Assembly: GCA_041499035.1 (NCBI GenBank) | Contig: JBGQJK010000002.1 | Location: 6,571 to 70,570 of the forward strand | DNA length: 64,000 nt | Reading direction: 5' to 3' | Origin: Patescibacteria group bacterium | Lineage (GTDB): Bacteria > Patescibacteriota > Microgenomatia > UBA8517 | Part shown: positions 1-10,993 of the stretch, piece by piece | How the letters are laid out: the number at the start of each line of letters is the position of its first letter | How positions within the stretch are numbered: position 1 is the stretch's first letter | Notes under the pieces: model-generated | Told to the model about the DNA's origin: nothing | The model's database searches: none | Seen by the model: the letters and a program-made list of their open reading frames with translations, nothing else | Program-made: the position numbers and the translations under genes

Positions 1-399
1 TTCCGTCCGGCCTTTTTAAGTTCGATCCTCTCTCCTATAATCGAAACAATATCAGTTTTACTTTTTACTTCCTGCACCTGATCGTTCATTTCAAATGTAG
101 TTTACCATAGAAAGACCGAAGAAAACCTGAAGTAGTCCGCGCCTAATGTTGCCCCTAGTCTTTCCCCAAACCTGACTGAGTCCCTAGCTGTGGGGTCGGG
201 GTTACAGCAGCAGGAAGGTCGACTTTAGTTTCCGCAGATTGCGTTTTGTTTAAACTCAAGTTGTAGCGCCCCGTCTCTCCGCCCCCGTGCGAAGTAGCAA
301 CGACTTTTGCTAGTTCAAGTAAATAATTTATCCTGTCTGCCTTCATGACCTTAGTTATATACCAAATCGGGATGATATTGTCAAACAACTGAACGAAAA

Positions 400-909
400 C
401 TACTTGAAAAATTTCTTTTTATCAATCCTCTTCCCCTTTAAAATCGCATCAACCATTTTTATCTCTTCTCCAATTCCGGCTATCAGATCATATTTTTCCG
501 AGTCTTTTGCCGGAAGCCAAGCAAAATCAATACTTTCCGAATTGAGTCTAATACTTCCCTTTTTTATCGGTGCATAAAAACTGAAAGCAATTACCGGAAT
601 GTTATCGGGCCTGATAAAGGTAAGGTCTAAAAGATAGTCAATTTTGCCTACCTCAACACCAACTTCTTCCATAATTTCCCTCCTCAAACTATCTTCCAGG
701 GCAAAATACCAAACTTTATCTTTTTTGGTTGTGGGGGCTTTCTTTACATAGTCATCAATAGTCAGCCCCCCACCCGGTACTGTCCACTTCCCCGGCCAGA
801 CTTTTTTATCCAAACTTCTTTTGGTAATCAGATACCTGCTGTCTTTATAAATTATCGCTGTGGAGACAATTCTATGGAGCTCTCTGTTTTTAATCTGCCC
901 ATATTTCAT
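400..909 (-). CDS. Nudix hydrolase
   Basis: Nudix box GGG-x5-E-x7-REIMEEVGVEV in translation 'PGGGLTIDDY...LRREIMEEVGVEV'. Confidence 0.75.
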   Translation of the reverse strand: MKYGQIKNRELHRIVSTAIIYKDSRYLITKRSLDKKVWPGKWTVPGGGLTIDDYVKKAPTTKKDKVWYFALEDSLRREIMEEVGVEVGKIDYLLDLTFIRPDNIPVIAFSFYAPIKKGSIRLNSESIDFAWLPAKDSEKYDLIAGIGEEIKMVDAILKGKRIDKKKFFK

Positions 910-947
910 AAAATAATTTTAACACTTTACCCGAAGAAAAGGAGAAG

Positions 948-1661
948 TTATACCTCAAAATCCAAAATTAACGGGAGGTGGTCGGAAATTTCCAAATATG
1001 GAACCTCAAATTTTTTAACTTTAACCTCGGGGGAAATAAAGCAATAATCTGCAAAGTACTGTTTTCCAAAATACTGCTTATCCTTTTTTGTATGGTCAGC
1101 TAAATCATTCCTTGTTGTTCTAACTTTAAAATCCTTGATTAGATTTTTATAGCCGGAGGCCTCAAAAACCTTTACGCTTTCTGTATCAGGCATTAGATTA
1201 AAATCACCCCCAATTATCTTTGGGCCAGTAAATTCATGAGCGAAGTCAATAATTTTTGCGGACTGTGTAAGCCGATCTTCCGAATCGAGTTTGTCACCTG
1301 GATATGCCATCCCCTGAAGATTTAAAACTGTCGTGCTTCCTAAATCAACCGCCTGAACAAAAGCAGGAACTTCCGTACCTCCAACACTCTCAAGAGCATC
1401 ATAAAGAAGTAACTTCTTGTAATCTAATACCAGAAGCTCCTTATTAACAAAAACTACTTGTGAGCTTTTAGAGTTTTTCAAACTATCATCAAAAGCAAAA
1501 TATCCTCCAAAATTGTCTAATAGAAATTGTAATTTTTTGTATAAAGTGGGTGTAACTTCTGAAAGACAAAAAGTACTTGTGGCCGAAGATTGTTTTGAAA
1601 TAAATTGAAGTAGCCCTCTCTCCACCTTTCCGCTCCAAGTATTTAGAAAAATAGCTCTCAT
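948..1661 (-). CDS. endonuclease/exonuclease/phosphatase (EEP) family protein
   Basis: C-terminal 'EISDHLPLILDFEV' is the typical EEP terminal SDH motif; 'GGDFNL' catalytic-type motif. Confidence 0.65.
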   Translation of the reverse strand: MRAIFLNTWSGKVERGLLQFISKQSSATSTFCLSEVTPTLYKKLQFLLDNFGGYFAFDDSLKNSKSSQVVFVNKELLVLDYKKLLLYDALESVGGTEVPAFVQAVDLGSTTVLNLQGMAYPGDKLDSEDRLTQSAKIIDFAHEFTGPKIIGGDFNLMPDTESVKVFEASGYKNLIKDFKVRTTRNDLADHTKKDKQYFGKQYFADYCFISPEVKVKKFEVPYLEISDHLPLILDFEV

Positions 1662-2155
1662 TTCTTGTTTTGGATCAACTTTTTCGCCTCTTTTAAAAAC
1701 GTCAGATCTCTTTTCTGAATAAAATGTCCTTGGTAATCTTCAGGTTTATCATTTTCGGTCTTCTTAATTGCTTCGTCCAAAGATAACCAGATAAGTCTAA
1801 AGCCTTCGTCTATCTCATCTTTTTCAAAATCCGGATTTCCTTTAGACAATATCTCCCCGAAGTAACAATACGATGTTTGTTTCAAATTAAATTCGGATCG
1901 AAACTCAACGACTTTGCCTATTTCTTTGCCTACTTTGATAGTGCTTCCAACTTCTTCCTTTACCTCCCGTACCAAGGCCTGAATTTGACCCTCCCCCTGC
2001 TCAATTCCACCACCAGGAAGTTTGTGATAGTTATTTTTGGAAACAAAAAGAAGCGGAATCAAGTTCTCACTATCAAATAAAACCGCCCTCGAAGCCTCAC
2101 GTGTTTTATGGTCTTTAGTAAAATCTTTATCCTTTATTGTTTTTAAAAGCCTCAT
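1658..2155 (-). CDS. Nudix hydrolase (start trimmed to internal Met; the longer ORF would overlap tRNA-Ser)
   Basis: Nudix box 'GGGIEQGEGQIQALVREVKEEVGS'. The six-frame ORF extends to 2227 but overlaps a canonical tRNA, so the internal Met 'MRLLKT' is the likely start. Confidence 0.65.
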   Translation of the reverse strand: MRLLKTIKDKDFTKDHKTREASRAVLFDSENLIPLLFVSKNNYHKLPGGGIEQGEGQIQALVREVKEEVGSTIKVGKEIGKVVEFRSEFNLKQTSYCYFGEILSKGNPDFEKDEIDEGFRLIWLSLDEAIKKTENDKPEDYQGHFIQKRDLTFLKEAKKLIQNKK

Positions 2156-2164
2156 AAACGAATG

Positions 2165-2247
2165 CGGAGGAGGCGAGACTCGAACTCGCGAGGGCTTGCG
2201 CCCGCACGCTTTCCAAGCGTGTACCATAGCCGCTAGGTGACTCCTCC
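2165..2247 (-). tRNA. tRNA-Ser (anticodon GGA)
   Basis: Reverse complement folds as 7-bp acceptor GGAGGAG/CTCCTCC, anticodon loop TTGGAAA, long variable arm, T-loop TTCGAGT, discriminator G. Confidence 0.8.
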
Positions 2248-2272
2248 AGAGTCTGTATTATACCCTAAAATG

Positions 2273-2344
2273 TGCCTCTGGACAGATTCGAACTGTCATC
2301 AAAGGATCCGGAATCCCTCATTCTATCCGTTAAACTACAGAGGC
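2273..2344 (-). tRNA. tRNA-Arg (anticodon CCG)
   Basis: RC: GCCTCTG acceptor pairs CAGAGGC, D-loop AACGGAT, anticodon loop TTCCGGA, T-loop TTCGAAT. Confidence 0.75.
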
Positions 2345-2875
2345 AAGTAGGTCTTTAGCTTTAACAAGTATCTGTTTCTCCCCACCGAAGGAAAGCTGTT
2401 TTTTAGCTTCCTCAAACGGAAGCCAAACAACTTCCTCAGTCTCCCAGTCATGCCCTTCGGGTAAATCTTTTATATACTCCATTAAGTAAAAGGTTACAAA
2501 TTTTAATATCTTCCCCACCTTGACATCGGTAAAAGAATACATTGAGGTGCCTATTTTTTTGACTATTTTGGCCTCAACTCCGGCTTCTTCCTTGACCTCT
2601 CTAATCGCCGCGTTTTCAAGAGAGGCTACATCAGCTTTAATTTTTCCGGAAGCCATTGGTCCCGGAAGATCACCGTCAGTATCGTCGATTCGCCCCTTGG
2701 GAAGCATCCAATATTGTTTTGGATAAAGGGCGCTAGCCGTGGTTTTTCTGATAAGCCAGAGTATTTGGCCATTATCTATTTTGAAGACTACTCCCCCAGA
2801 GGAAAACTCTCTGGTAACGGAGCTTTTTAGAACATCACCACTTCCTGTTTTTTGAGATTGTGTGTTTTTTCCCAT
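2330..2875 (-). CDS. Nudix hydrolase
   Basis: Nudix box 'LPKGRIDDTDGDLPGPMASGKIKADVASLENAAIREVKEEAGVE'. Confidence 0.7.
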   Translation of the reverse strand: MGKNTQSQKTGSGDVLKSSVTREFSSGGVVFKIDNGQILWLIRKTTASALYPKQYWMLPKGRIDDTDGDLPGPMASGKIKADVASLENAAIREVKEEAGVEAKIVKKIGTSMYSFTDVKVGKILKFVTFYLMEYIKDLPEGHDWETEEVVWLPFEEAKKQLSFGGEKQILVKAKDLLASVV

Positions 2876-3294
2876 TCTTTTAGAACGTCCTTCGCGCCTT
2901 TTAGCATGTCCTTTTCCCTTTTAAGACCCAGTCTTTTTAAAGCTTCGCCAAAATCCAGCCATTTAAATTGATCAAAGCCAATCAGCTCGCTGCTCCCACC
3001 TTTTTGCAACATTAAATAATAATAAAACTTTTGGGGAATTGATTTGGCATTAACAATTGTTGTTCCAGATGAGCGTCCTGCTTCTTCTAATACCCTTGCC
3101 GCCATTCCACCCTGCTCACTGGCCAAACGGATTGCGGCTCTGACAGAAGATTCCCCTTTCCTTACAGTCACTTTGGGAATCTCCCAATCGGGAGCCTCTC
3201 TCTGTTTCACCAATAAAAACTGCCGCTTGCCGCGGTTCTCTCTAAAGAGCACTGCCCCGCCTATTACAATTTGTTGATTTTTTCCGTTTTTCAT
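2827..3294 (-). CDS. Nudix-like hydrolase (degenerate Nudix box)
   Basis: 'GGAVLF...LLVKQREAPDWEIPKVTVRKGESSVRAAIRLASEQGGMAARV' has Nudix-fold spacing with a partly degenerate box. Overlaps the neighbouring gene by ~49 nt. Confidence 0.45.
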   Translation of the reverse strand: MKNGKNQQIVIGGAVLFRENRGKRQFLLVKQREAPDWEIPKVTVRKGESSVRAAIRLASEQGGMAARVLEEAGRSSGTTIVNAKSIPQKFYYYLMLQKGGSSELIGFDQFKWLDFGEALKRLGLKREKDMLKGAKDVLKEWEKTHNLKKQEVVMF

Positions 3295-3415
3295 TTTGTT
3301 TTTATGTTCTCGTCTGCCCGAAATTGTACAACAATTTCGAGAGGAGTAATAAACTTGCGTAAGTTTCCAAAACTTTCGTTTTGAGAAACTGCTAGCAACG
3401 TTTGATTACGACGAG

Positions 3416-3500
3416 CGGAGGGTACAGGATTTGAACCTGTGTAGGGATTACTCCCTCGAGTTTTCGAAACTCGTGCAATTGGCCGCTATGCGAACCCTCC
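3416..3500 (-). tRNA. tRNA-Ser (anticodon CGA)
   Basis: RC: acceptor GGAGGGT/ACCCTCC, anticodon arm CGAGT-TTCGAAA-ACTCG, long variable arm, T-loop TTCAAAT, discriminator G. Confidence 0.8.
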
Positions 3501-3510
3501 TCGCTTAGTG

Positions 3511-3582
3511 TGCCCTCGATCAGAATTGAACTGATATCTTAGGTTCCGCAAACCCATACTCTATCCGTTGAGCTACGAGGGC
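3511..3582 (-). tRNA. tRNA-Arg (anticodon GCG)
   Basis: RC: acceptor GCCCTCG/CGAGGGC, D-loop AACGGAT, anticodon loop TTGCGGA, T-loop TTCAATT. Confidence 0.7.
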
Positions 3583-3588
3583 TCATTT

Positions 3589-3663
3589 GACTCTCCGCAG
3601 GCTCATACTCTACTGCGAGCCCTCGAGCCAGCAAGCTCTGCTTATCCGTTAAGCTACGGGTGC
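3589..3663 (-). other. tRNA-like remnant (5' half resembles tRNA-Arg; no canonical cloverleaf)
   Basis: RC begins GCACCCGTAGCTTAACGGATAAGC, near-identical to the acceptor and D-arm of the adjacent tRNA-Arg. I could not find a pairing anticodon stem or a 3' acceptor strand. Confidence 0.3.
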
Positions 3664-3667
3664 AAGT

Positions 3668-4246
3668 CTATTTGTTCCCAGACAGTTTTTGTGTAAACCA
3701 ATCTGCGAGCTTATCAAGCCCAACAGTGGGTACTTCCTCATATGGAATGTAGGCAGAAACCTCTCTTTTTAAACTATCTTTAATTTCGGTATTTATTACA
3801 AGCTCAATTCGCCCCGGAATTAAAAATGTTTCAAGAATTATAACCTCGCTCCCGCTCCTCTTTCTAAACCGAAACCGGGTAAGCGTTTGCCACTCTGTCA
3901 GCTTGCCTGCAATTTTTACGCCTTTGGTAGTTATTTTGTATTCAATGTTTTCCGGCGGTACTGTCGAAAGAACATAATATAAAAACACCAGTGCAACTAT
4001 CAAAATAACAGGCATAATTCCCTCAGCCAGAAAAAGAACCAAGCTGATAATGCCTGCAATTGCAAAAACCGTTGTATAAAACTGACGGTCGCGCTTCATA
4101 AACGGCCTTGCCGGCGCTATCCATATAAGCAAATCGCGCTCAGGCTCACGCCTGACAACAACAGTCTGCGGCTCTTTATTTAAAGTGCTTTGATTGGACT
4201 TTTTTTCTTCTTTGGCAGCATCCATACCGACCTTATTATACCTCAA
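3668..4246 (-). CDS. membrane protein with bacterial PH-like (bPH_2/YdbS-type) domain
   Basis: Charged N-terminus, two TM helices, then a C-terminal beta-rich domain 'KITTKGVKIAGKLTEWQTLTRFRF'. Confidence 0.45.
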   Translation of the reverse strand: MRYNKVGMDAAKEEKKSNQSTLNKEPQTVVVRREPERDLLIWIAPARPFMKRDRQFYTTVFAIAGIISLVLFLAEGIMPVILIVALVFLYYVLSTVPPENIEYKITTKGVKIAGKLTEWQTLTRFRFRKRSGSEVIILETFLIPGRIELVINTEIKDSLKREVSAYIPYEEVPTVGLDKLADWFTQKLSGNK

Positions 4247-4273
4247 AACCTGCTATAATTGCAGTGCCTAAAA

Positions 4274-4361
4274 GGAGGATATGCCGAGCGGCTAAGGCAA
4301 AGGTTTGCTAAACCTTGGCCACGCAAGTGGCCGGTGGGTTCGACTCCCTCATCCTCCGCCA
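4274..4361 (+). tRNA. tRNA-Ser (anticodon GCT), CCA encoded
   Basis: GGAGGAT acceptor, D-arm GCCGAGCGGCTAAGGC, anticodon loop TTGCTAA, long variable arm, T-loop TTCGACT, 3' GCCA. Confidence 0.85.
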
Positions 4362-4362
4362 T

Positions 4363-4444
4363 GGTGGGCGGGCAGGACGGTAATGCGCGGGTCTTGAAAA
4401 CCCGTGAGCGCAAGCTCTAACAGGTTCGACCCCTGTGCCCACCG
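4363..4444 (+). tRNA. tRNA-Ser (anticodon TGA)
   Basis: Acceptor GGTGGGC/GCCCACC, anticodon arm CGGGT-CTTGAAA-ACCCG, long variable arm, T-loop TTCGACC. D-arm pairing is atypical. Confidence 0.65.
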
Positions 4445-4445
4445 C

Positions 4446-5126
4446 TTACCGTGCAATCGTCATTCCCCAAACTTTTTTAACACCTCCGTGTTTTAGCACT
4501 TTTGCGGCCTCGTGGAGGGTAGAGCCCGTGGTAAAAATGTCATCGAAAAGCAGTATATCGGCAATAGTATGTTGTATATAGGAAGGATTAAGATAAAAGG
4601 CCCCTTTGAGATTATGTTTACGCTCCTCAACTGACAATTCAACCTGAGAAGAGGTAGATTTATGCTTTATTAAAAGATCAGGATTAAATCCCCACCCCAT
4701 CTCTTTAGCTACCAACTTGCCGATTTCTACTGATTGGTTAAACCCGCGTACGTTTTGCCTGTGCCAATGAATTGGAATGGGAACAAGGGAATTAGTATTT
4801 GGTATGTAGTATTTAGCATATTGGGACCTAAGGGTATCCAAAAAAGCAGAAGATAGCTCACGGCCAACTTCGGTGGAGTATTTAAATTTTAGTGCCAATA
4901 TAGCCTTCTTAATTACACCTTCATATTTCCAGATAGAAGTCAGGCCGTCCAGACCATACTTTCTCCTACATTTGATGTGCGTAAAACCGTCAATTGACGC
5001 CTTTTCGCAATAAGGACAGGCCGGCTTGAGTATTCTGACCTTGCTCAAACAATTCTCACAAATATATTTGCCTTCTTTTCCACAGTCCAAACAAGCTTTC
5101 GGGAAAATCAAATTAAGTAGGTCCAT
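4446..5126 (-). CDS. comFC: ComF-family phosphoribosyltransferase-like protein
   Basis: N-terminal 4-Cys zinc ribbon 'CLDCG...CENC...CPYC', C-terminal PRTase motif 'LLFDDIFTTGSTLHEAAKVLKHGG'. Confidence 0.7.
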   Translation of the reverse strand: MDLLNLIFPKACLDCGKEGKYICENCLSKVRILKPACPYCEKASIDGFTHIKCRRKYGLDGLTSIWKYEGVIKKAILALKFKYSTEVGRELSSAFLDTLRSQYAKYYIPNTNSLVPIPIHWHRQNVRGFNQSVEIGKLVAKEMGWGFNPDLLIKHKSTSSQVELSVEERKHNLKGAFYLNPSYIQHTIADILLFDDIFTTGSTLHEAAKVLKHGGVKKVWGMTIAR

Positions 5127-5578
5127 TGAGGTACAATATAAGTATGAAATTATTCAACAAAAGAGCAAGATTTGAATATGAACTCACAGGAGAGGGAGTT
5201 GAGGCCGGATTGTCCCTAAAGGGAGCCGAGGCTAAATCTATCCGCGAAGGCCGGGGGGATTTGTCCAATTCTTTCGCAAAAATCATGGGTAATGAAATTT
5301 ATTTGGTCAATGCCAACATCCCGGCACAAGGGCTGGAAAAATATGACTCTACCCGCACCAGAAAACTCCTTTTGCACCACCAGGAGATACTGTCGCTAGG
5401 AACAAAAATGAAGCAAAAAAAGTTGCAAATTGTGCCTCTACGGCTGTATAATAAGGGTCGCTTAATCAAGCTCTATCTAGAGCTAGGCAAGCCTAAAAAG
5501 CAGTTTCAGAAGAAGGAGGCAATTAAGCGCCACGATATAAAGCGAGATATTGAAGGTGAATTTAAAGCTTCGCTTTAA
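5126..5578 (+). CDS. smpB: SsrA-binding protein SmpB
   Basis: 'NKRARFEYELTGE...GAEAKSIREGR' SmpB signature; immediately upstream of the tmRNA gene. Confidence 0.85.
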   Translation: MRYNISMKLFNKRARFEYELTGEGVEAGLSLKGAEAKSIREGRGDLSNSFAKIMGNEIYLVNANIPAQGLEKYDSTRTRKLLLHHQEILSLGTKMKQKKLQIVPLRLYNKGRLIKLYLELGKPKKQFQKKEAIKRHDIKRDIEGEFKASL

Positions 5579-5581
5579 ATC

Positions 5582-5942
5582 GGGGACGATCGGTTTCGAC
5601 GGGAAGCTCTTTGACAAAACGGCAAGCAGACTTTGACTCTAGGTCTTTGATAAGAGTTAAAAAACAAAAGCTACGAATTTATTCGAAGCTCCAGCCTACA
5701 ACGTAGTTTACGCTTAAGCTGGCGTCCTGAGATCTGATTCTCGATCGGGTCGACTGGGTGTAAACCATTCGAGATGCTGTTTAAGCTTTAATGATTTAAA
5801 GGTTTAAACAAAAGACAAATAAATCTTACCTTGAAATTCCTTTTTGGCTAGATAAGTTCAGGGAAAATTTAAAAACCAAATAAGCTTGTAGAAGTTTTGT
5901 TATTATGTTTTTCGGACGCGGGTTCGATTCCCGCCGTCTCCA
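5582..5942 (+). ncRNA. ssrA: transfer-messenger RNA (tmRNA, ssrA)
   Basis: 5' GGGGACGATCGGTTTCGACGGG (tRNA-like acceptor/D region), 3' GGACGCGGGTTCGATTCCCGCCGTCTCCA (T-arm plus acceptor), internal tag ORF ending ...YNVVYA-TAA. Adjacent to smpB. Confidence 0.8.
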
Positions 5943-6339
5943 CTTAAAAAATAATATTAGTTCTGAACTCTCATTTCAAAATCGTATTTTTATGCACCCT
6001 GGTGCAGGTGGTATTTATGCTAACGAGGGACATAGTATGACAGTTAACGGCAACGGGAGTAGTAATTTTCAGGGAATCCATTTTCATCATTCAGAACCTC
6101 TAACGGTAATCAAGTCAACGGCACTGCTCAGATTAAAAGGATTAATTCGCGACAACGAATCGGTTGTCGAGTTAAGAAGTTGTGGAACAGATAACAGAGG
6201 CGTTGAGGGATTCGCCGCGCGGACAGATAAAATGTTCGACAGTTATGAGCCTCACGTGTCGTTAGGCGATCTCTTTGATTCGATAAACACACTTCGCAAT
6301 TCCTCACTTTGGCCGAAGAAATAAGTATCTCGAACAAGA

Positions 6340-8241
6340 CTACTGATTCTGAATATCTAGCGAATACAGCTTGTCTCCTGTAAGAAGAATTATTTTCTTA
6401 TCAGCTTCCGAAACTACCAAGTTTATGCCTCCCGAAATTAATGAATCTTCATATTGGGCCTTATAAACACCCTTCTTATCGGTAACCACCACCCTGCTGC
6501 CTGCTTTATCAAGCAAATAAATATACTGATTATCCGGGTTGGCATAAATGGCGTCAATATTTCCAATTTCCGGAATTACACCAGAAACATTAAAGTTTTG
6601 GGGACTGCCCTGGCTGAACTTAAGCACTTTAGAGTTAGGATACAGGGCATAGATTGATCCGTCTATGGTTATCTGCAAAATATTCGAAAAATTAACATTA
6701 GTTCCTGCTGCAAGCCAATTTTGTTTATCACCAAACGAGTTCCCTGTCCCAGCATATCTATAAATTGCATTTCCGGCTTTGTCTATTACATACATATTTC
6801 CGGCAAAGGCTGATATAAGCGCATCAGATGTCCATACTTTACTGATAACCTTACTATTACCTGAATCAACTTCATAAATACCATCACTTTCAAGAACAAA
6901 GACTTTGGCTTCGTAAGCCGCCAGTGCGGAGGCCGAATTTATTACCCCGGGTCCTGCAACCACCCTGCTCTTTTTTGTGGAAAGGTCAACGCTAACTATT
7001 CGTTGTCCAGATTTATCGAGAACGTAGATAAACCCGCCCGAAAAAGCTACTATGTCGCCTTTAAACCCGGAGGAAAGCAGTGTCAAATCCAAAAACATCT
7101 GGGGCGTCTCCCGGTATTCCCCAAGAACTGCAGCCCGGCTGTCATCAATCTTTTTCTTGAGAGCGTCGATTTTAGTGTCATGTACGTTCATAGCAGTAAT
7201 TCGATTCAGTTTTTGTTCGCTGTCGGCAAACAGCTCACGGCTCCGCTCAGAACTGACACTCGCCAGGCTTATAGCCTGATCAGCCTCGCTTGTTGCCTGC
7301 GCAAGAATTCCCTGATATTTACTTTTCAAATCATTGATCTTTTTCTGACGTATGCCAAATCCGATACTTACTCCTAAAAGCACCAGAAGAATCGCCGCAA
7401 CCGTAAAAGTAAGCTTTTTGCTTTCGGGGGAAGCTTGGGGAGCCTGTTCCGCCTTTAAATAGATATTTTTTTGAGGAATTCTTTTGAAAAGCTTGGAAAC
7501 AAATTCCTGAATCTTATCTGATATCATCAACGGGTTTCTAAAATCTAGACTCAATTTGTTAAATTTTCTTGGTTCCGCGATTTCCGGACGCGCTTCTGCA
7601 AATAGTGTGTTTGCGTCTTCTTTTTCCTCAAATTTAATCACGGTTGCAGCCAAGTTTCCCTGGCTTTCTGAGCCAAGCACGATAGGACCGAACGTCTCAA
7701 TTGAATCTTCGGAAGTTTTTGCCGAAAGCGCAGCTCTAAGTATTCCGTTCGGGACCTTCTCAAAAAATGTTTTTGTCGCCAAAAGTATAACGTCGCCACT
7801 CTTGGGAAAACCCGAGGCAACAACTACCTGATCTTTTTCACTTTCCAGGATTTTTCCGAGCGAACCGTTCCGGAAAACCATTACGCCTGCCCCGCCAACC
7901 GCTACGGAATAAACAACATTTCCGACGAAAGCAGCTGCAACAATTTCGACGTCCCCCCAGGTGTGCCTGAATTCATCGGCAACTTTCTTGGTAGCATCCC
8001 TGAGAACATTGAAGGGCTTACCTGTCGGGTTGCCGTAGTATTCTTCATGGTACCTGGTTAAAAGTTCCCGTCCGGCAGCAAGTGTGTCTATACCGCTCTC
8101 TGTGTGACTGGTAGAAACTATCGCAAATAAGTGTCCCCGGAGTTTAAGCTTATCAGAATCCTCCGGTTCAAACTCATGTACTTGTGCCCACCCGGACGGC
8201 CCAGGCGCACCAGTCAACTTGGAGGCACTAGAAATTAACAT
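6340..8241 (-). CDS. transmembrane protein: degenerate PP2C-like N-domain, single TM, coiled coil, C-terminal beta-propeller-like repeats
   Basis: N-term 'IVAAAFVGNVVYSVAVGGAGVMVFRNGS' resembles the PP2C 'LYVANVGDSRAVLxRNG' core with Asp/Ser replaced by Gly. TM 'LTFTVAAILLVLLGVSIGFGI'. Five to six repeats of type 'YVLDKSGQRIVSVD / IYLLDKAGSRVVV'. Confidence 0.5.
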   Translation of the reverse strand: MLISSASKLTGAPGPSGWAQVHEFEPEDSDKLKLRGHLFAIVSTSHTESGIDTLAAGRELLTRYHEEYYGNPTGKPFNVLRDATKKVADEFRHTWGDVEIVAAAFVGNVVYSVAVGGAGVMVFRNGSLGKILESEKDQVVVASGFPKSGDVILLATKTFFEKVPNGILRAALSAKTSEDSIETFGPIVLGSESQGNLAATVIKFEEKEDANTLFAEARPEIAEPRKFNKLSLDFRNPLMISDKIQEFVSKLFKRIPQKNIYLKAEQAPQASPESKKLTFTVAAILLVLLGVSIGFGIRQKKINDLKSKYQGILAQATSEADQAISLASVSSERSRELFADSEQKLNRITAMNVHDTKIDALKKKIDDSRAAVLGEYRETPQMFLDLTLLSSGFKGDIVAFSGGFIYVLDKSGQRIVSVDLSTKKSRVVAGPGVINSASALAAYEAKVFVLESDGIYEVDSGNSKVISKVWTSDALISAFAGNMYVIDKAGNAIYRYAGTGNSFGDKQNWLAAGTNVNFSNILQITIDGSIYALYPNSKVLKFSQGSPQNFNVSGVIPEIGNIDAIYANPDNQYIYLLDKAGSRVVVTDKKGVYKAQYEDSLISGGINLVVSEADKKIILLTGDKLYSLDIQNQ

Positions 8242-9211: not shown

Positions 9212-10993
9212 TTAATGCTTCTCAATATTGAAGAGTGGTCCGACAATTTGGATGTTGCTCGGGGCTCTAAGGTTAAAGTATGTCTTAAAATCCTGACCGT
9301 CAAAATTTCGGCCGTCAATTGTAACGGTAGTTGTTTTTCCGCTTCCGAAATCAGCATTAACCGATATGTTTGAAGCACTGTCAAATGGTGTAATTCCCCT
9401 CGTAGAAAGTTCACTTTTAACTCTGCCAGCGTCCCAGGTATCAACTCCGTCGGGATTTGGTTTATCAACCTGTGTCAGATGATCCTGAGTTGACCCGTCG
9501 GCTTTGGCGAGCAAAATAATGTTTGCAAAGTCTGCAATCTCCTCGGGCTTCAGCCATGCTGTTTTGTTGTAAGAGGAACGGCTGCCCCAATCGCAGTAGA
9601 AAACCGGCGAACTTTTATCGTAGGTGCTATTTGCAAGATCGGAAAAACTGTTTATCCCACCAGGCGCATCCTTAAGCCTTTTGGTCCAACTTGTATTACT
9701 CCAGCCAATATCCCCCGATGTGTAAGCATAGCCCCCGTGTGTTGAGGAAAACCAAGCTTTTATTGGACTTCCCCCGGTAGTCATTACAATACCGCGTGTG
9801 GCGTCCACTGCAGCCTGCCATGCACCATCATTAAGTTCTTTTTTTACTACCTGGCACTGCTGGCTGGGGCAAATACTGCCTGAGCCATTATTTGTGTAAG
9901 CTAATGCGAACGACCTGGCCGCGACTGCCTGGGCTTTAAGAGCTTCCGGATTCCAGCTTGTTGGCATCTCGTATAAATGTTTAAGATAATCGTCAATGTT
10001 CCAAGTGTCGTTAAATGACTGACCAAATTCGTTGCTGCCGGTTACGTGAATGTTAATTGATTGGTTATAACCCGTTGTGTAATCGGCGTTGTAGTAAGTC
10101 TTGAGAATCGTTTCGGCATTCTGACCAGCCTCGGCCCGGCCTTTGGCTCCAAACTGGTTAAGCCCTATCCTGTTGGGCACTCCGTAGCTGAAAAACGCAT
10201 AAGCCGGGCTAAAACCGGGGTCTTTGAAGGGGTTGATATCACTACTGCATCCACCCTTCATGTTGTAAGCGGATCTTGAAAGGCCTAATGTTGCGAGCTT
10301 TGCTGCCAGGAAGGATTGCTGTTTGGCCGAAAGCGTTGCCAAATATGCGCTGGCTTTTGCAACTTCCCCCGCCAAAAAGTTTGCCTTTTCGGTTACTTGT
10401 TTTTGAGCGGCAGTCAAAGCATCTTTATTCTTCTGAAGAGTATCTTCGTCCTGCTTAAGTTTAATCAGATCAGTGGCATATTGAGCCATCGTCTGTCTGT
10501 CGGAATCCGCCGCTCTTTGCCTAAGGTTAATTTCCTGAAAAGCCTGCGAGGCCGTATCGGCAAAAATAAATGGGGTTATGGGATCATAAAGTCTTAAGAA
10601 AGTATATTGGTCTTTGGCCTTTTGATTAAAAATCTCTCTGGTAAAGGCCATTTTCTCCTCGCGCAGGTTAATATCGGCTTGGGTTTGCTTAAGTTGATCC
10701 AAAAAAGAATTTATTCTCGCCGCTAAATTTGCGAGCTGCTTTTGGAGGGCGCTAAGATCCTGTTTATTTTTTTCATTGGCGGACTGAATCGGAGCCAGAA
10801 GTTGCGGGATTCCTACGTTGTAGCACCAATCCTGGTCCCCCTGCGAAAGATCGCTGACATTTTTAGTAAGACATTCCTGGGCAGTTATGGCAAAAACCAC
10901 AGTCGTTTTTAGAATCAAAAGGCCTAATACGGCAAGGGCCGTAGTAATTAATAATTTGAAAGACCTAGAATTAAATGGAAATTGTTTGCCCAC
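9212..10993 (-). CDS. SpoIID/LytB-domain peptidoglycan-remodelling protein with N-terminal TM and coiled coil
   Basis: 'PEALKAQAVAARSFALAYT' matches the SpoIID/LytB signature (EALKAQAVAARTYAL). N-terminal TM and long Q/K/L-rich coiled coil. Confidence 0.6.
   Translation of the reverse strand: MGKQFPFNSRSFKLLITTALAVLGLLILKTTVVFAITAQECLTKNVSDLSQGDQDWCYNVGIPQLLAPIQSANEKNKQDLSALQKQLANLAARINSFLDQLKQTQADINLREEKMAFTREIFNQKAKDQYTFLRLYDPITPFIFADTASQAFQEINLRQRAADSDRQTMAQYATDLIKLKQDEDTLQKNKDALTAAQKQVTEKANFLAGEVAKASAYLATLSAKQQSFLAAKLATLGLSRSAYNMKGGCSSDINPFKDPGFSPAYAFFSYGVPNRIGLNQFGAKGRAEAGQNAETILKTYYNADYTTGYNQSINIHVTGSNEFGQSFNDTWNIDDYLKHLYEMPTSWNPEALKAQAVAARSFALAYTNNGSGSICPSQQCQVVKKELNDGAWQAAVDATRGIVMTTGGSPIKAWFSSTHGGYAYTSGDIGWSNTSWTKRLKDAPGGINSFSDLANSTYDKSSPVFYCDWGSRSSYNKTAWLKPEEIADFANIILLAKADGSTQDHLTQVDKPNPDGVDTWDAGRVKSELSTRGITPFDSASNISVNADFGSGKTTTVTIDGRNFDGQDFKTYFNLRAPSNIQIVGPLFNIEKH

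Follow-up and report, generated by a model that had tools for sequence, protein, structure and literature searches.

Why would a reduced genome keep four genes of the Nudix family side by side among its tRNA genes? The question is raised by a 64,000-nucleotide (nt) stretch of contig JBGQJK010000002.1 (the window), which comes from a member of the Woesebacteria within the Patescibacteria, bacteria with very small genomes and few spare genes. An earlier note on this DNA had described five same-strand genes of a reduced genome, in the order Nudix, EEP (endonuclease/exonuclease/phosphatase fold), Nudix, Nudix and Nudix-like, interleaved with tRNA genes, and the list of open reading frames (ORFs), Pfam, ARAGORN and Rfam agree with this description. 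All five ORFs were confirmed on the minus strand; in the numbering of the window, which is used throughout, they encode N1 (400-909, 169 amino acids (aa)), EEP (948-1661, 237 aa), N2 (1658-2155, 165 aa), N3 (2330-2875, 181 aa) and N4 (2827-3294, 155 aa). Minus-strand genes are transcribed right to left, and the order of transcription is MEM (a small membrane protein), tRNA-Arg(GCG), tRNA-Ser(CGA), N4, N3, tRNA-Arg(CCG), tRNA-Ser(GGA), N2, EEP, N1, a 77-aa ORF and dnaG. The clustering of the Nudix genes is real and well above the chance expectation: the remaining 60 kb of the window contain no other Nudix ORF, and the chance that all four fall within five consecutive genes is about 3e-7, as a rough estimate that supposes about 700 genes with only four Nudix genes among them. 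The block might be a single-purpose Nudix island; we find it rather probable that it is instead the most gene-rich version so far of a conserved Woesebacteria housekeeping locus. Such a locus would be built around N4, with N3 as the old tandem paralog of N4, and N2, EEP and N1 would fill a variable slot just upstream of dnaG-rpoD, in which distinct Nudix and EEP housekeeping enzymes accrete.

A constant part and a variable slot

We compared the block with 72 species loci from a scan of one genome per species, all of them retrieved through N4 (N4 identity, 41-86%). Because the supplied gene calls miss N3 on some contigs, ORFs and tRNAs of these loci were called afresh and assigned by phmmer and tblastn, and gene content was counted in those 68 loci whose sequence runs on for 3 kb or more downstream of N4. 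The common backbone is SmpB/tmRNA-ComF-tRNA-Ser(TGA)-tRNA-Ser(GCT)-MEM-tRNA-Arg(GCG)-tRNA-Ser(CGA)-N4-[N3]-[tRNA-Arg(CCG)]-tRNA-Ser(GGA)-[slot]-DnaG-RpoD, where brackets mark the variable parts. DnaG-RpoD follows the block in most related loci, and the protein gene that stays constant at its position in all the loci retrieved is N4. N3 is present in 41 of the 68 loci and EEP in 25, and N1 and N2 occur in two loci each. None of these four genes was found in 22 loci, N3 only in 20, N3 and EEP in 17, EEP only in five, N3, N2 and EEP in two, and N3, EEP and N1 or N3 and N1 in one locus each; no locus among the 68 has all four.

Close relatives whose N4 is 86-90% identical to that of the window also differ in content. 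One has N4-N3-tRNA-Arg-tRNA-Ser-DnaG (L080), a second has the same order with an added EEP that is only 47% identical to the window EEP (L081), and a third has N4-N3-tRNA-Ser-DnaG (L082). Public gene calls had suggested that N3 is missing in L080 and L081; this was rejected, as tblastn finds N3 in both. The possibility raised in the earlier note that the block is variable in related genomes is thus borne out by the slot content of the 68 loci and of these close relatives. Only the part behind tRNA-Ser(GGA), that is N2, EEP and N1, behaves as accessory. The locus combines a constant part with a variable slot, and the window, with its four Nudix genes, shows the fullest version of it.

Another Woesebacteria contig (L087) has N4-N3-N2-EEP-DnaG-RpoD followed by a Nudix-GNAT acetyltransferase fusion at 10127-10942. 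As this fusion lies right after rpoD, the far end of the locus is another place where Nudix genes gather.

The Nudix and EEP proteins

All four Nudix proteins exceed the gathering cutoff of the Pfam NUDIX profile (PF00293; N1 39.8, N2 52.7, N3 56.2 and N4 33.9 bits; cutoff 21.1). Their pairwise identity is 24-35%, and the closest pair is N3 and N4 (35% over 92 residues, E = 1.5e-9). Because of this low identity, and because their best PDB and NCBIfam relatives differ, N1-N4 are, judged by sequence, old paralogs of different subfamilies; recent tandem duplication of one MutT-like gene, which would have spoken against the earlier note, does not describe them. Against the NCBIfam equivalogs of RppH, MutT, NudC and ADP-ribose pyrophosphatase they scored 12-44 bits, and none reached the cutoffs of 80-475. 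Since all of these scores are far below cutoff, the subfamily labels used below are nearest neighbours, not assignments, and no substrate can be assigned to the Nudix proteins; the "specialised sanitation or salvage" of the earlier note would follow from family membership. A literature search on Nudix proteins in Woesebacteria or the candidate phyla radiation (CPR) found nothing relevant. The catalytic Nudix box (GX5EX7REUXEEXGU, with the three metal-binding Glu of REUXEE) is present in N1, N2 and N3. That of N2 (GGGIEQGEGQIQALVREVKEEVGS) is fully canonical, and N1 (REIMEEVGV) and N3 (REVKEEAGV) retain the catalytic half, the first half being split by an insertion of 15-16 aa. The insertions of N1 and N3, which belong to different subfamilies, interrupt the box at one shared point, after Gx5(E/D) and before the catalytic helix.

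The box of N4 is degenerate. Alignment to the consensus upheld what the earlier note had said of the ORF at 2827-3294: V42 stands in place of the first Gly, followed by R56-L57 and E60-Q61, and the box reads PKV..GE..R-L-A-S-E-Q-G-G-M as compared with G..E..R-E-U-x-E-E-x-G-U. Other residues stand in place of the Glu after Arg and of the second Glu of EE at each of the 72 loci and likewise in about 55 representative N4 clusters (50% identity) from a full hidden Markov model (HMM) search, and REUxEE was found in no member of either set. Part of the N4 motif served as the search pattern for the 72 loci, and the RE and EE positions were not in that pattern. The family motif, WE.PK..VR.GESSVR...R[L/M/Y..]..E[Q/K/M..]..M...VLEE.GR, is kept in the 72 loci and the approximately 55 clusters. 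The homologs of N4 number 471, and all of those with a name belong to Woesebacteria, Microgenomates or unclassified Patescibacteria; at scores lower than about 76 bits, the matches turn abruptly into canonical PKG..E.GE...REV.EE.G proteins.

The best solved relatives of N4 are the diadenosine tetraphosphate (Ap4A) hydrolase of Caenorhabditis elegans, Ndx1 of Thermus thermophilus and the Ap4A hydrolase of Aquifex. The N4 family profile matches 3I7U (7.6e-7), 1KT9 (1.2e-5) and NUDT2 (1.6e-4), and is free of gaps across the Nudix-box and X-loop regions when aligned with the Aquifex, C. elegans and human Ap4A hydrolases. In C. elegans numbering, K36, E43, R51 and E55 are retained in the family, G37 is replaced by Val, E52 by Leu or Met, and E56 by Gln or Lys. 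The X-loop tyrosine, which contacts or stacks on adenine in ApnA hydrolases (PMC5389931), corresponds to Val81 in N4 and to Val, Ile or Leu across the family. Two of the three catalytic glutamates are thus gone from N4, together with the tyrosine for ApnA specificity.

Nevertheless, the N4 gene is not decaying. The ratio of nonsynonymous to synonymous substitution rates (dN/dS) between N4 and its orthologs in four close relatives is 0.04-0.06, as compared with 0.07-0.10 for N3 and MEM, although these ratios are rough because synonymous sites are close to saturation. A value of about 0.05 means strong purifying selection, stronger on the degenerate N4 than on its catalytically intact neighbour N3. 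The idea that N4 is exceptionally conserved was rejected: its overall divergence is on a par with that of DnaG, SmpB and N3, and only its dN/dS among close relatives is lower. N4 is also basic, with an isoelectric point (pI) of 9.99; the family median is 9.85, with 65 of 73 members above 9, as compared with medians of 7.8 for the canonical relatives and 8.9 for N3. The basic pI is merely suggestive, as N1, MEM, ComF and SmpB of the window also have values of 9.35-10.02. N4 is most likely a functional, non-catalytic Nudix-fold protein. A class of non-catalytic Nudix-homology proteins has been described (NrtR regulators, DBC1, CFIm25/NUDT21 and mitoribosomal mL46; PMC5389931), and N4 resembles it in its Nudix fold, degenerate box and purifying selection, which would imply a binding role. 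N4 differs from this class in that it has no extra domain (no helix-turn-helix as in NrtR), has no sequence kinship with it beyond the fold, and is restricted to Woesebacteria/Microgenomates, where it lies inside a putative tRNA operon.

N3 resembles the asymmetric Ap4A hydrolases more fully. Its best solved relative is the Aquifex enzyme (3I7U, E = 4e-14, full length), followed by Chlamydia CT771, and both N3 and the N4 family profile are similar over their full length to solved enzymes of this type (Aquifex aeolicus 3I7U, C. elegans 1KT9/1KTG, human NUDT2 and T. thermophilus Ndx1). N3 keeps REVKEEAGV and, with the Tyr of "MYSF" aligned with "HYWY" of Aquifex, the specificity Tyr of the X-loop that N4 lacks; N4, which is strongly basic, has replaced this Tyr, the first Gly of the box, the Glu of "RE" and the second Glu of "EE". 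Unlike the solved enzymes, N3 has a 15-aa insertion in the box ("LPGPMASGK.."; "PGPMASG..KA"). The insertion is kept in most N3 orthologs and absent in seven, which have an ordinary PKGWIDEGE..REV.EE.GV box, and the catalytic residues of REVxEExG are intact in all orthologs. By its family membership, N3 may be an active pyrophosphatase of the asymmetric Ap4A/NpnN type.

The three genes of the slot have other relatives. The best PDB matches of N2 are Enterococcus faecalis 2AZW and DIPP1/NUDT3, the latter a diphosphoinositol/ApnA hydrolase, and its canonical box is shared with this group; however, the E-values are only 1e-6 to 1e-8, and N2 forms a tight CPR/DPANN family of its own. Homologs of N2 are 60-76% identical across CPR and DPANN/Bathyarchaeia archaea, and this distribution suggests horizontal spread, with inter-domain transfer among ultra-small prokaryotes. 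Members that are 61-65% identical occur in P0453, P0457 and P0466, which are labelled by source as Pacearchaeota, Bathyarchaeia and Woesearchaeota (loci L083 and L084). The start of N2 is most likely ATG 2155, since the resulting 165 aa agree with the gene call in L005 and with the lengths of orthologs. A longer ORF (to 2227; 189 aa in most public gene calls) starts at an ATG inside tRNA-Ser(GGA), and its apparent Shine-Dalgarno sequence, GGAGGAG, is the acceptor stem of that tRNA; the 189-aa call is probably a systematic mis-annotation.

The stop codon of N2 and the start codon of EEP overlap as ATGA, and N2, labelled DIPP/ApnA-like, might be translationally coupled to an active EEP phosphoesterase. 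We rejected a general functional pair of N2 and EEP, as none of the N2 homologs outside Woesebacteria (in Woesearchaeota, a Bathyarchaeia-labelled contig and CPR3) adjoins an EEP gene. The coupling is local, because the neighbours of N2 in these other lineages are unrelated. EEP itself scores 26.8 bits against Pfam Exo_endo_phos (PF03372; cutoff 24.5), and N7, E35, D153, N155, D227 and H228 show little or no variation among 49 homologs. Its AlphaFold2 (AF2) model has a predicted local distance difference test (pLDDT) score of 93.8, and Foldseek matched it to EEP structures at a template modelling (TM) score of about 0.7, with E-values of 1e-13 to 1e-15. Profile, fold and the catalytic Asn, Glu, Asp and His together place the protein in the EEP superfamily. 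The structural neighbours, some of them uncharacterised EEPs of Bacteroides, are Bacteroides BVU_0621 (3G6S), 3MPR, Bt3783 (mannosyl-6-phosphatase), TDP2 and Nocturnin as the best matches, and CNOT6L, ANGEL2 and Crc; the window protein differs from them in its identity of 12-21%, and it can be placed in no subfamily that would define a substrate.

The best PDB match of N1 is NudI (6DT3, E = 4e-9), and its N-terminal part is similar to isopentenyl diphosphate isomerases. N1 shares with NudI (6DT3, 3OGA and 3N77) a similar "PGxW..GGG" and RREIxEExG; it differs in the 16-aa insertion of the box, seen in the NudI alignment beside the intact REIMEEVGV half, and in its score of 43.9 bits against NCBIfam NudI (NF012016), short of the cutoff of 95. 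N1 may be a NudI-like (d)NTP or prenyl-diphosphate pyrophosphatase. If family membership is a guide, N1-N3 and EEP would clear different nucleotide-derived pyrophosphates ("house-cleaning") and would be expressed with core replication and transcription genes.

tRNA genes and probable transcription units

The block is almost free of spacers. N4 and N3 overlap by 49 nt, tRNA-Ser(GGA) and the N2 start are separated by 8 nt, and the same-strand gaps run from a 15-nt overlap up to 38 nt, except for a 120-nt spacer ahead of N4. The 15-nt overlap is that of N3 with tRNA-Arg(CCG) (2272-2344, minus strand; ARAGORN and Rfam, 62.6 bits): the 15 nt at 2330-2344, with which the tRNA begins in its 5' acceptor/D-arm, also serve as the final four codons and stop codon of N3. 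An overlap of N3 with tRNA-Arg, of 10-27 nt, is also present in L011-L014 and L032. N3 orthologs without tRNA-Arg(CCG) end in "...KELL". RNase P cleavage of an N3/tRNA-Arg co-transcript would strip the stop codon from N3 and make it a potential tmRNA substrate.

N4 likewise has tRNA genes close by. Directly upstream of it lies tRNA-Ser(CGA) (3415-3500, minus strand; ARAGORN and Rfam), preceded by tRNA-Arg(GCG) (3510-3582, minus strand; ARAGORN and Rfam, 65 bits). The earlier note had placed further tRNAs directly downstream of the five genes; such tRNAs do lie beyond N4, but, the genes being on the minus strand, they are transcriptionally upstream. Upstream of N4 in related loci, the first tRNA on the same strand is a tRNA-Ser in 58 of 62 and tRNA-Ser(CGA) in 48 of 62, with a median of 48 nt from the 3' end of the upstream tRNA-Ser to the first aligned N4 residue. 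The 120-nt spacer of the window is long compared with this median. On the other side, tRNA-Ser(GGA) is the next same-strand tRNA after N4 or N4-N3 in 62 of 71 loci, and in species without N3 the gap between N4 and tRNA-Ser(GGA) is often only 3-30 nt. MEM (3668-4225, minus strand; 185 aa from the likely ATG 4225, in agreement with the public gene call; weak DUF5673 match) was recognised in 61 of the 72 loci, mostly just upstream of the tRNA-Arg(GCG)/tRNA-Ser(CGA)/N4 group.

Where does transcription start in such an array? We base the promoters on a comparative analysis of -10 boxes, because a generic sigma-70 and terminator scan of positions 1-5200 gave counts no higher than those of shuffled sequences. 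TATAAT occurs within 40 nt upstream of tRNA-Ser(GGA) in 38 of 69 loci, mostly 9-13 nt from the 5' end, and upstream of tRNA-Ser(GCT) in 43 of 53 loci, mostly 8-15 nt away, as compared with one of 63 for tRNA-Ser(CGA) and none of 14 for tRNA-Arg(CCG). The background is 0.00058 per nt, or about 2% per 40-nt window, and the box is mostly T[G/A]nTATAAT. At this locus, -10 boxes are found only before tRNA-Ser(GGA), tRNA-Ser(GCT) and MEM, and the upstream regions of MEM and tRNA-Ser(GGA) have a 20-nt motif in common (repeat D8). The TATAAT at 2257-2262 (minus strand) lies 9 nt upstream of the 5' end of tRNA-Ser(GGA) (2164-2247, minus strand; ARAGORN and Rfam, 49.7 bits), and is likely the promoter of tRNA-Ser(GGA)-N2-EEP-N1-dnaG-rpoD, for which the tRNA would form the leader. 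The TATAAT at 4235-4240 (minus strand), 9 nt upstream of the MEM ATG, is likely the promoter of MEM-tRNA-Arg-tRNA-Ser-N4-N3-tRNA-Arg.

From spacing and the conserved -10 boxes, the region would comprise three units, namely tRNA-Ser(GCT)-tRNA-Ser(TGA), MEM-tRNA-Arg-tRNA-Ser-N4-N3-tRNA-Arg and tRNA-Ser(GGA)-[N2-EEP-N1]-dnaG-rpoD. The four Nudix genes would be split over two tRNA-punctuated units, from which mRNAs are freed by processing of tRNA 5' and 3' ends, and the accessory genes would hitch-hike on the dnaG-rpoD promoter. Co-orientation of dnaG and rpoD behind a small upstream gene is familiar from the macromolecular-synthesis operon of Escherichia coli, rpsU-dnaG-rpoD, and in the tRNA-tufB operon and the tRNA punctuation of mitochondria, protein genes are transcribed together with tRNAs and parted from them by tRNA processing; we infer co-transcription here as well. 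The present locus differs from rpsU-dnaG-rpoD in that a tRNA-Ser leader, a variable Nudix/EEP set and a degenerate Nudix protein replace S21. It is a clear bacterial case of protein genes packed almost without spacers between tRNAs, one of them with its stop codon inside a tRNA, and tRNA processing would have to set the mRNA ends.

Several observations on the tRNA genes may be added. Four tRNA-Ser isoacceptors (TGA, GCT, CGA and GGA) and two tRNA-Arg lie within 2.3 kb (2164-4445), and the tRNA-Ser/tRNA-Arg cluster is kept, with local inversions, across the Woesebacteria loci L008-L082. The anticodon of the tRNA-Arg in the cluster is GCG in 61 loci and ACG in one (L008-L079), which would fit decoding without A34-to-I editing. 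The -10 boxes 9-13 nt before the mature 5' ends of tRNA-Ser(GGA), tRNA-Ser(GCT) and tRNA-Asn(GTT) point to very short tRNA leaders, and the box ahead of MEM would give a nearly leaderless mRNA.

Possible roles of the block and its flanking features

A housekeeping locus with a constant N4 and a variable slot accounts for most of the above, and several points weigh against it. The loci were found through N4, which makes its universality partly a matter of construction. The absence of N1, N2 and EEP was judged within about 8 kb only, and these genes may lie elsewhere in the genomes; N1-like genes do occur at other positions in L038 and L039, as does the Nudix-GNAT fusion past rpoD in L087. The transcription units are drawn from motifs, with a generic promoter scan not above chance, and the equivalog scores that leave the subfamily labels as nearest neighbours apply to all four Nudix proteins. 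N4 could still be catalytic, because some Nudix enzymes with non-canonical boxes, such as GDP-mannose mannosyl hydrolase, do show activity. The AF2 model of N4, built on an alignment of 25 sequences, reached a pLDDT of 54.7, too poor for a fold search. In the housekeeping reading, N4 would be a non-catalytic, basic Nudix-fold binding protein, whose ligand may be a protein, a nucleotide or RNA, and its role would be independent of the adjacent N3.

The last point bears on an alternative that we regard as a tentative possibility, namely that N4 is the regulatory or scaffolding pseudoenzyme subunit of a heterodimeric N3-N4 Ap4A/NpnN hydrolase, and that the other genes are unrelated neighbours. 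N3 and N4 are mutually the closest paralogs (35% over 92 aa) and align with the same solved Ap4A hydrolases. Their genes overlap by about 30-50 nt in most loci, and in the window the ATG of N3 lies inside the conserved Glu-Trp codons of N4. However, in 27 of the 68 loci N4 has no N3 beside it, and the asymmetric Ap4A hydrolases of Aquifex and animals are not known to depend on a partner.

A second alternative, which we consider rather unlikely, is that the block is a module acting on RNA 5' and 3' ends, in which N3 and N2, perhaps joined by N4 as the partner that binds RNA, take triphosphate, Np4 or NAD-type caps off transcripts, and EEP trims or dephosphorylates RNA 3' ends; the genes would then lie in tRNA operons since they act on the RNAs made there. 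The bacterial Nudix protein RppH removes Np4 caps (PMC7044304, PMC8833179), N2 has weak matches to the RppH and YtkD models, and N3 and N4 fall in the Ap4A-hydrolase branch, N4 with a weak match to the N-terminal Nudix region of Dcp2. Among the structural neighbours of EEP are the CNOT6L deadenylase, the 2',3'-cyclic phosphatase ANGEL2, TDP2 and Crc, and N4 is basic (pI of about 10) like SmpB and set tightly between tRNA-Ser genes. These similarities, however, are at the level of superfamily or branch and below curated cutoffs, and the neighbours of EEP equally include sugar and NADP(H) phosphatases. Furthermore, N2 homologs of other lineages have unrelated neighbours without EEP, and N3, N2 and EEP are missing at the locus in many species, which would be odd for a core RNA-decay machine.

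We also considered a wider role for N4. N4 might stand for a family, spread across the Woesebacteria, of basic Nudix-fold proteins without catalytic activity that descend from an Ap4A hydrolase and have been recruited to the translation/transcription core, with RNA (tRNA-Ser precursors or 5' ends, for instance) or an NpnN alarmone as ligand; this seems unlikely. Its expression inside a tRNA-Ser operon, just ahead of tRNA-Ser(GGA)-dnaG-rpoD and so roughly in the place of rpsU in the E. coli operon, would be part of the same recruitment, and we hold that proposal equally doubtful.

It is quite improbable that the block arrived by horizontal transfer as an accessory or defence island and integrated beside tRNA genes. 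In favour of such an origin, slot content differs between relatives with N4 86-90% identical, the window EEP shares only 47% identity with the EEP of a relative in which N4 is 87% identical, members of the N2 family in DPANN/Bathyarchaeia are 60-65% identical, which suggests inter-domain transfer, and the G+C content of positions 1-2000 is slightly lower (0.385 as compared with about 0.43). Against it, this dip is inside the normal range of the window (0.374-0.468), no integrase, transposase or att-like direct repeats occur at the locus, and N4 and N3 are vertically conserved at the site. PADLOC gave generic Nudix-box matches to the candidate PDC-S07 (24-41 bits) and nothing for EEP, N4 or MEM, and a PHROGs scan gave generic Nudix matches only. 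No direct repeats flank the slot; the repeats present are the tRNA-Arg paralogs and a tRNA-Arg remnant, Nudix-box coding segments and short two-copy families. The content of the slot does change fast, however, and N2 has the look of a horizontally mobile gene. Of the tRNA-linked accessory island suggested in the earlier note, the accessory nature of the N2/EEP/N1 slot stands; the constancy of N4 in the loci retrieved and the lack, at the locus, of integrase, att-like repeats, a composition break or a specific defence match do not fit it.

Four Nudix genes in one place, one of them a probably inactive copy that strong selection maintains across the class, suggest that turnover or sensing of nucleotide-derived pyrophosphates matters in Patescibacteria. 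The slot behind the likely promoter of tRNA-Ser(GGA) would mark a place at which such genomes acquire and discard accessory enzymes. Knowledge of the Nudix and EEP families themselves is unchanged; the value of the locus is that of a lead, not a discovery, and its weight lies mainly in N4 and the tRNA-punctuated arrangement.

At its downstream end, the locus reaches the 5' end of dnaG (1-89, minus strand), with rpoD next, outside the window. The 77-aa ORF between N1 and dnaG (155-388, minus strand), which has no Pfam match and no homolog among the 72 related loci, may be specific to this lineage, or a spacer and not a gene. Locus L001, from the same genome, has the order N1-sORF-DnaG-RpoD, and an identical block is carried by a 690-kb contig of GCA_041485065.1 and by seven further contigs. 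At the other end, tRNA-Ser(GCT) and tRNA-Ser(TGA) (4274-4445, plus strand; ARAGORN and Rfam) form the divergent unit, beyond which ComF, SmpB and tmRNA follow; an Rfam scan of positions 1-7000 at a permissive threshold found tRNAs and tmRNA only.

The 85 nt between MEM and tRNA-Arg(GCG) are occupied by a remnant of a tRNA-Arg gene (3583-3667, minus strand; repeat families D2 and D10). In L008 and L080-L082 the corresponding distance is only 4-78 nt. The 5' acceptor/D arm of the remnant is 84% identical to the 5' part of tRNA-Arg(CCG) and a segment of the anticodon region is recognisable, with the 3' half missing. An intron-bearing tRNA was considered for this segment and rejected; neither ARAGORN nor Rfam calls it, and its fold z-score is 0.1. 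Finally, a hairpin, GTTTCTCAAAAC-GAAA-GTTTTGGAAAC, lies on the minus strand at 3335-3375, between tRNA-Ser(CGA) and N4.

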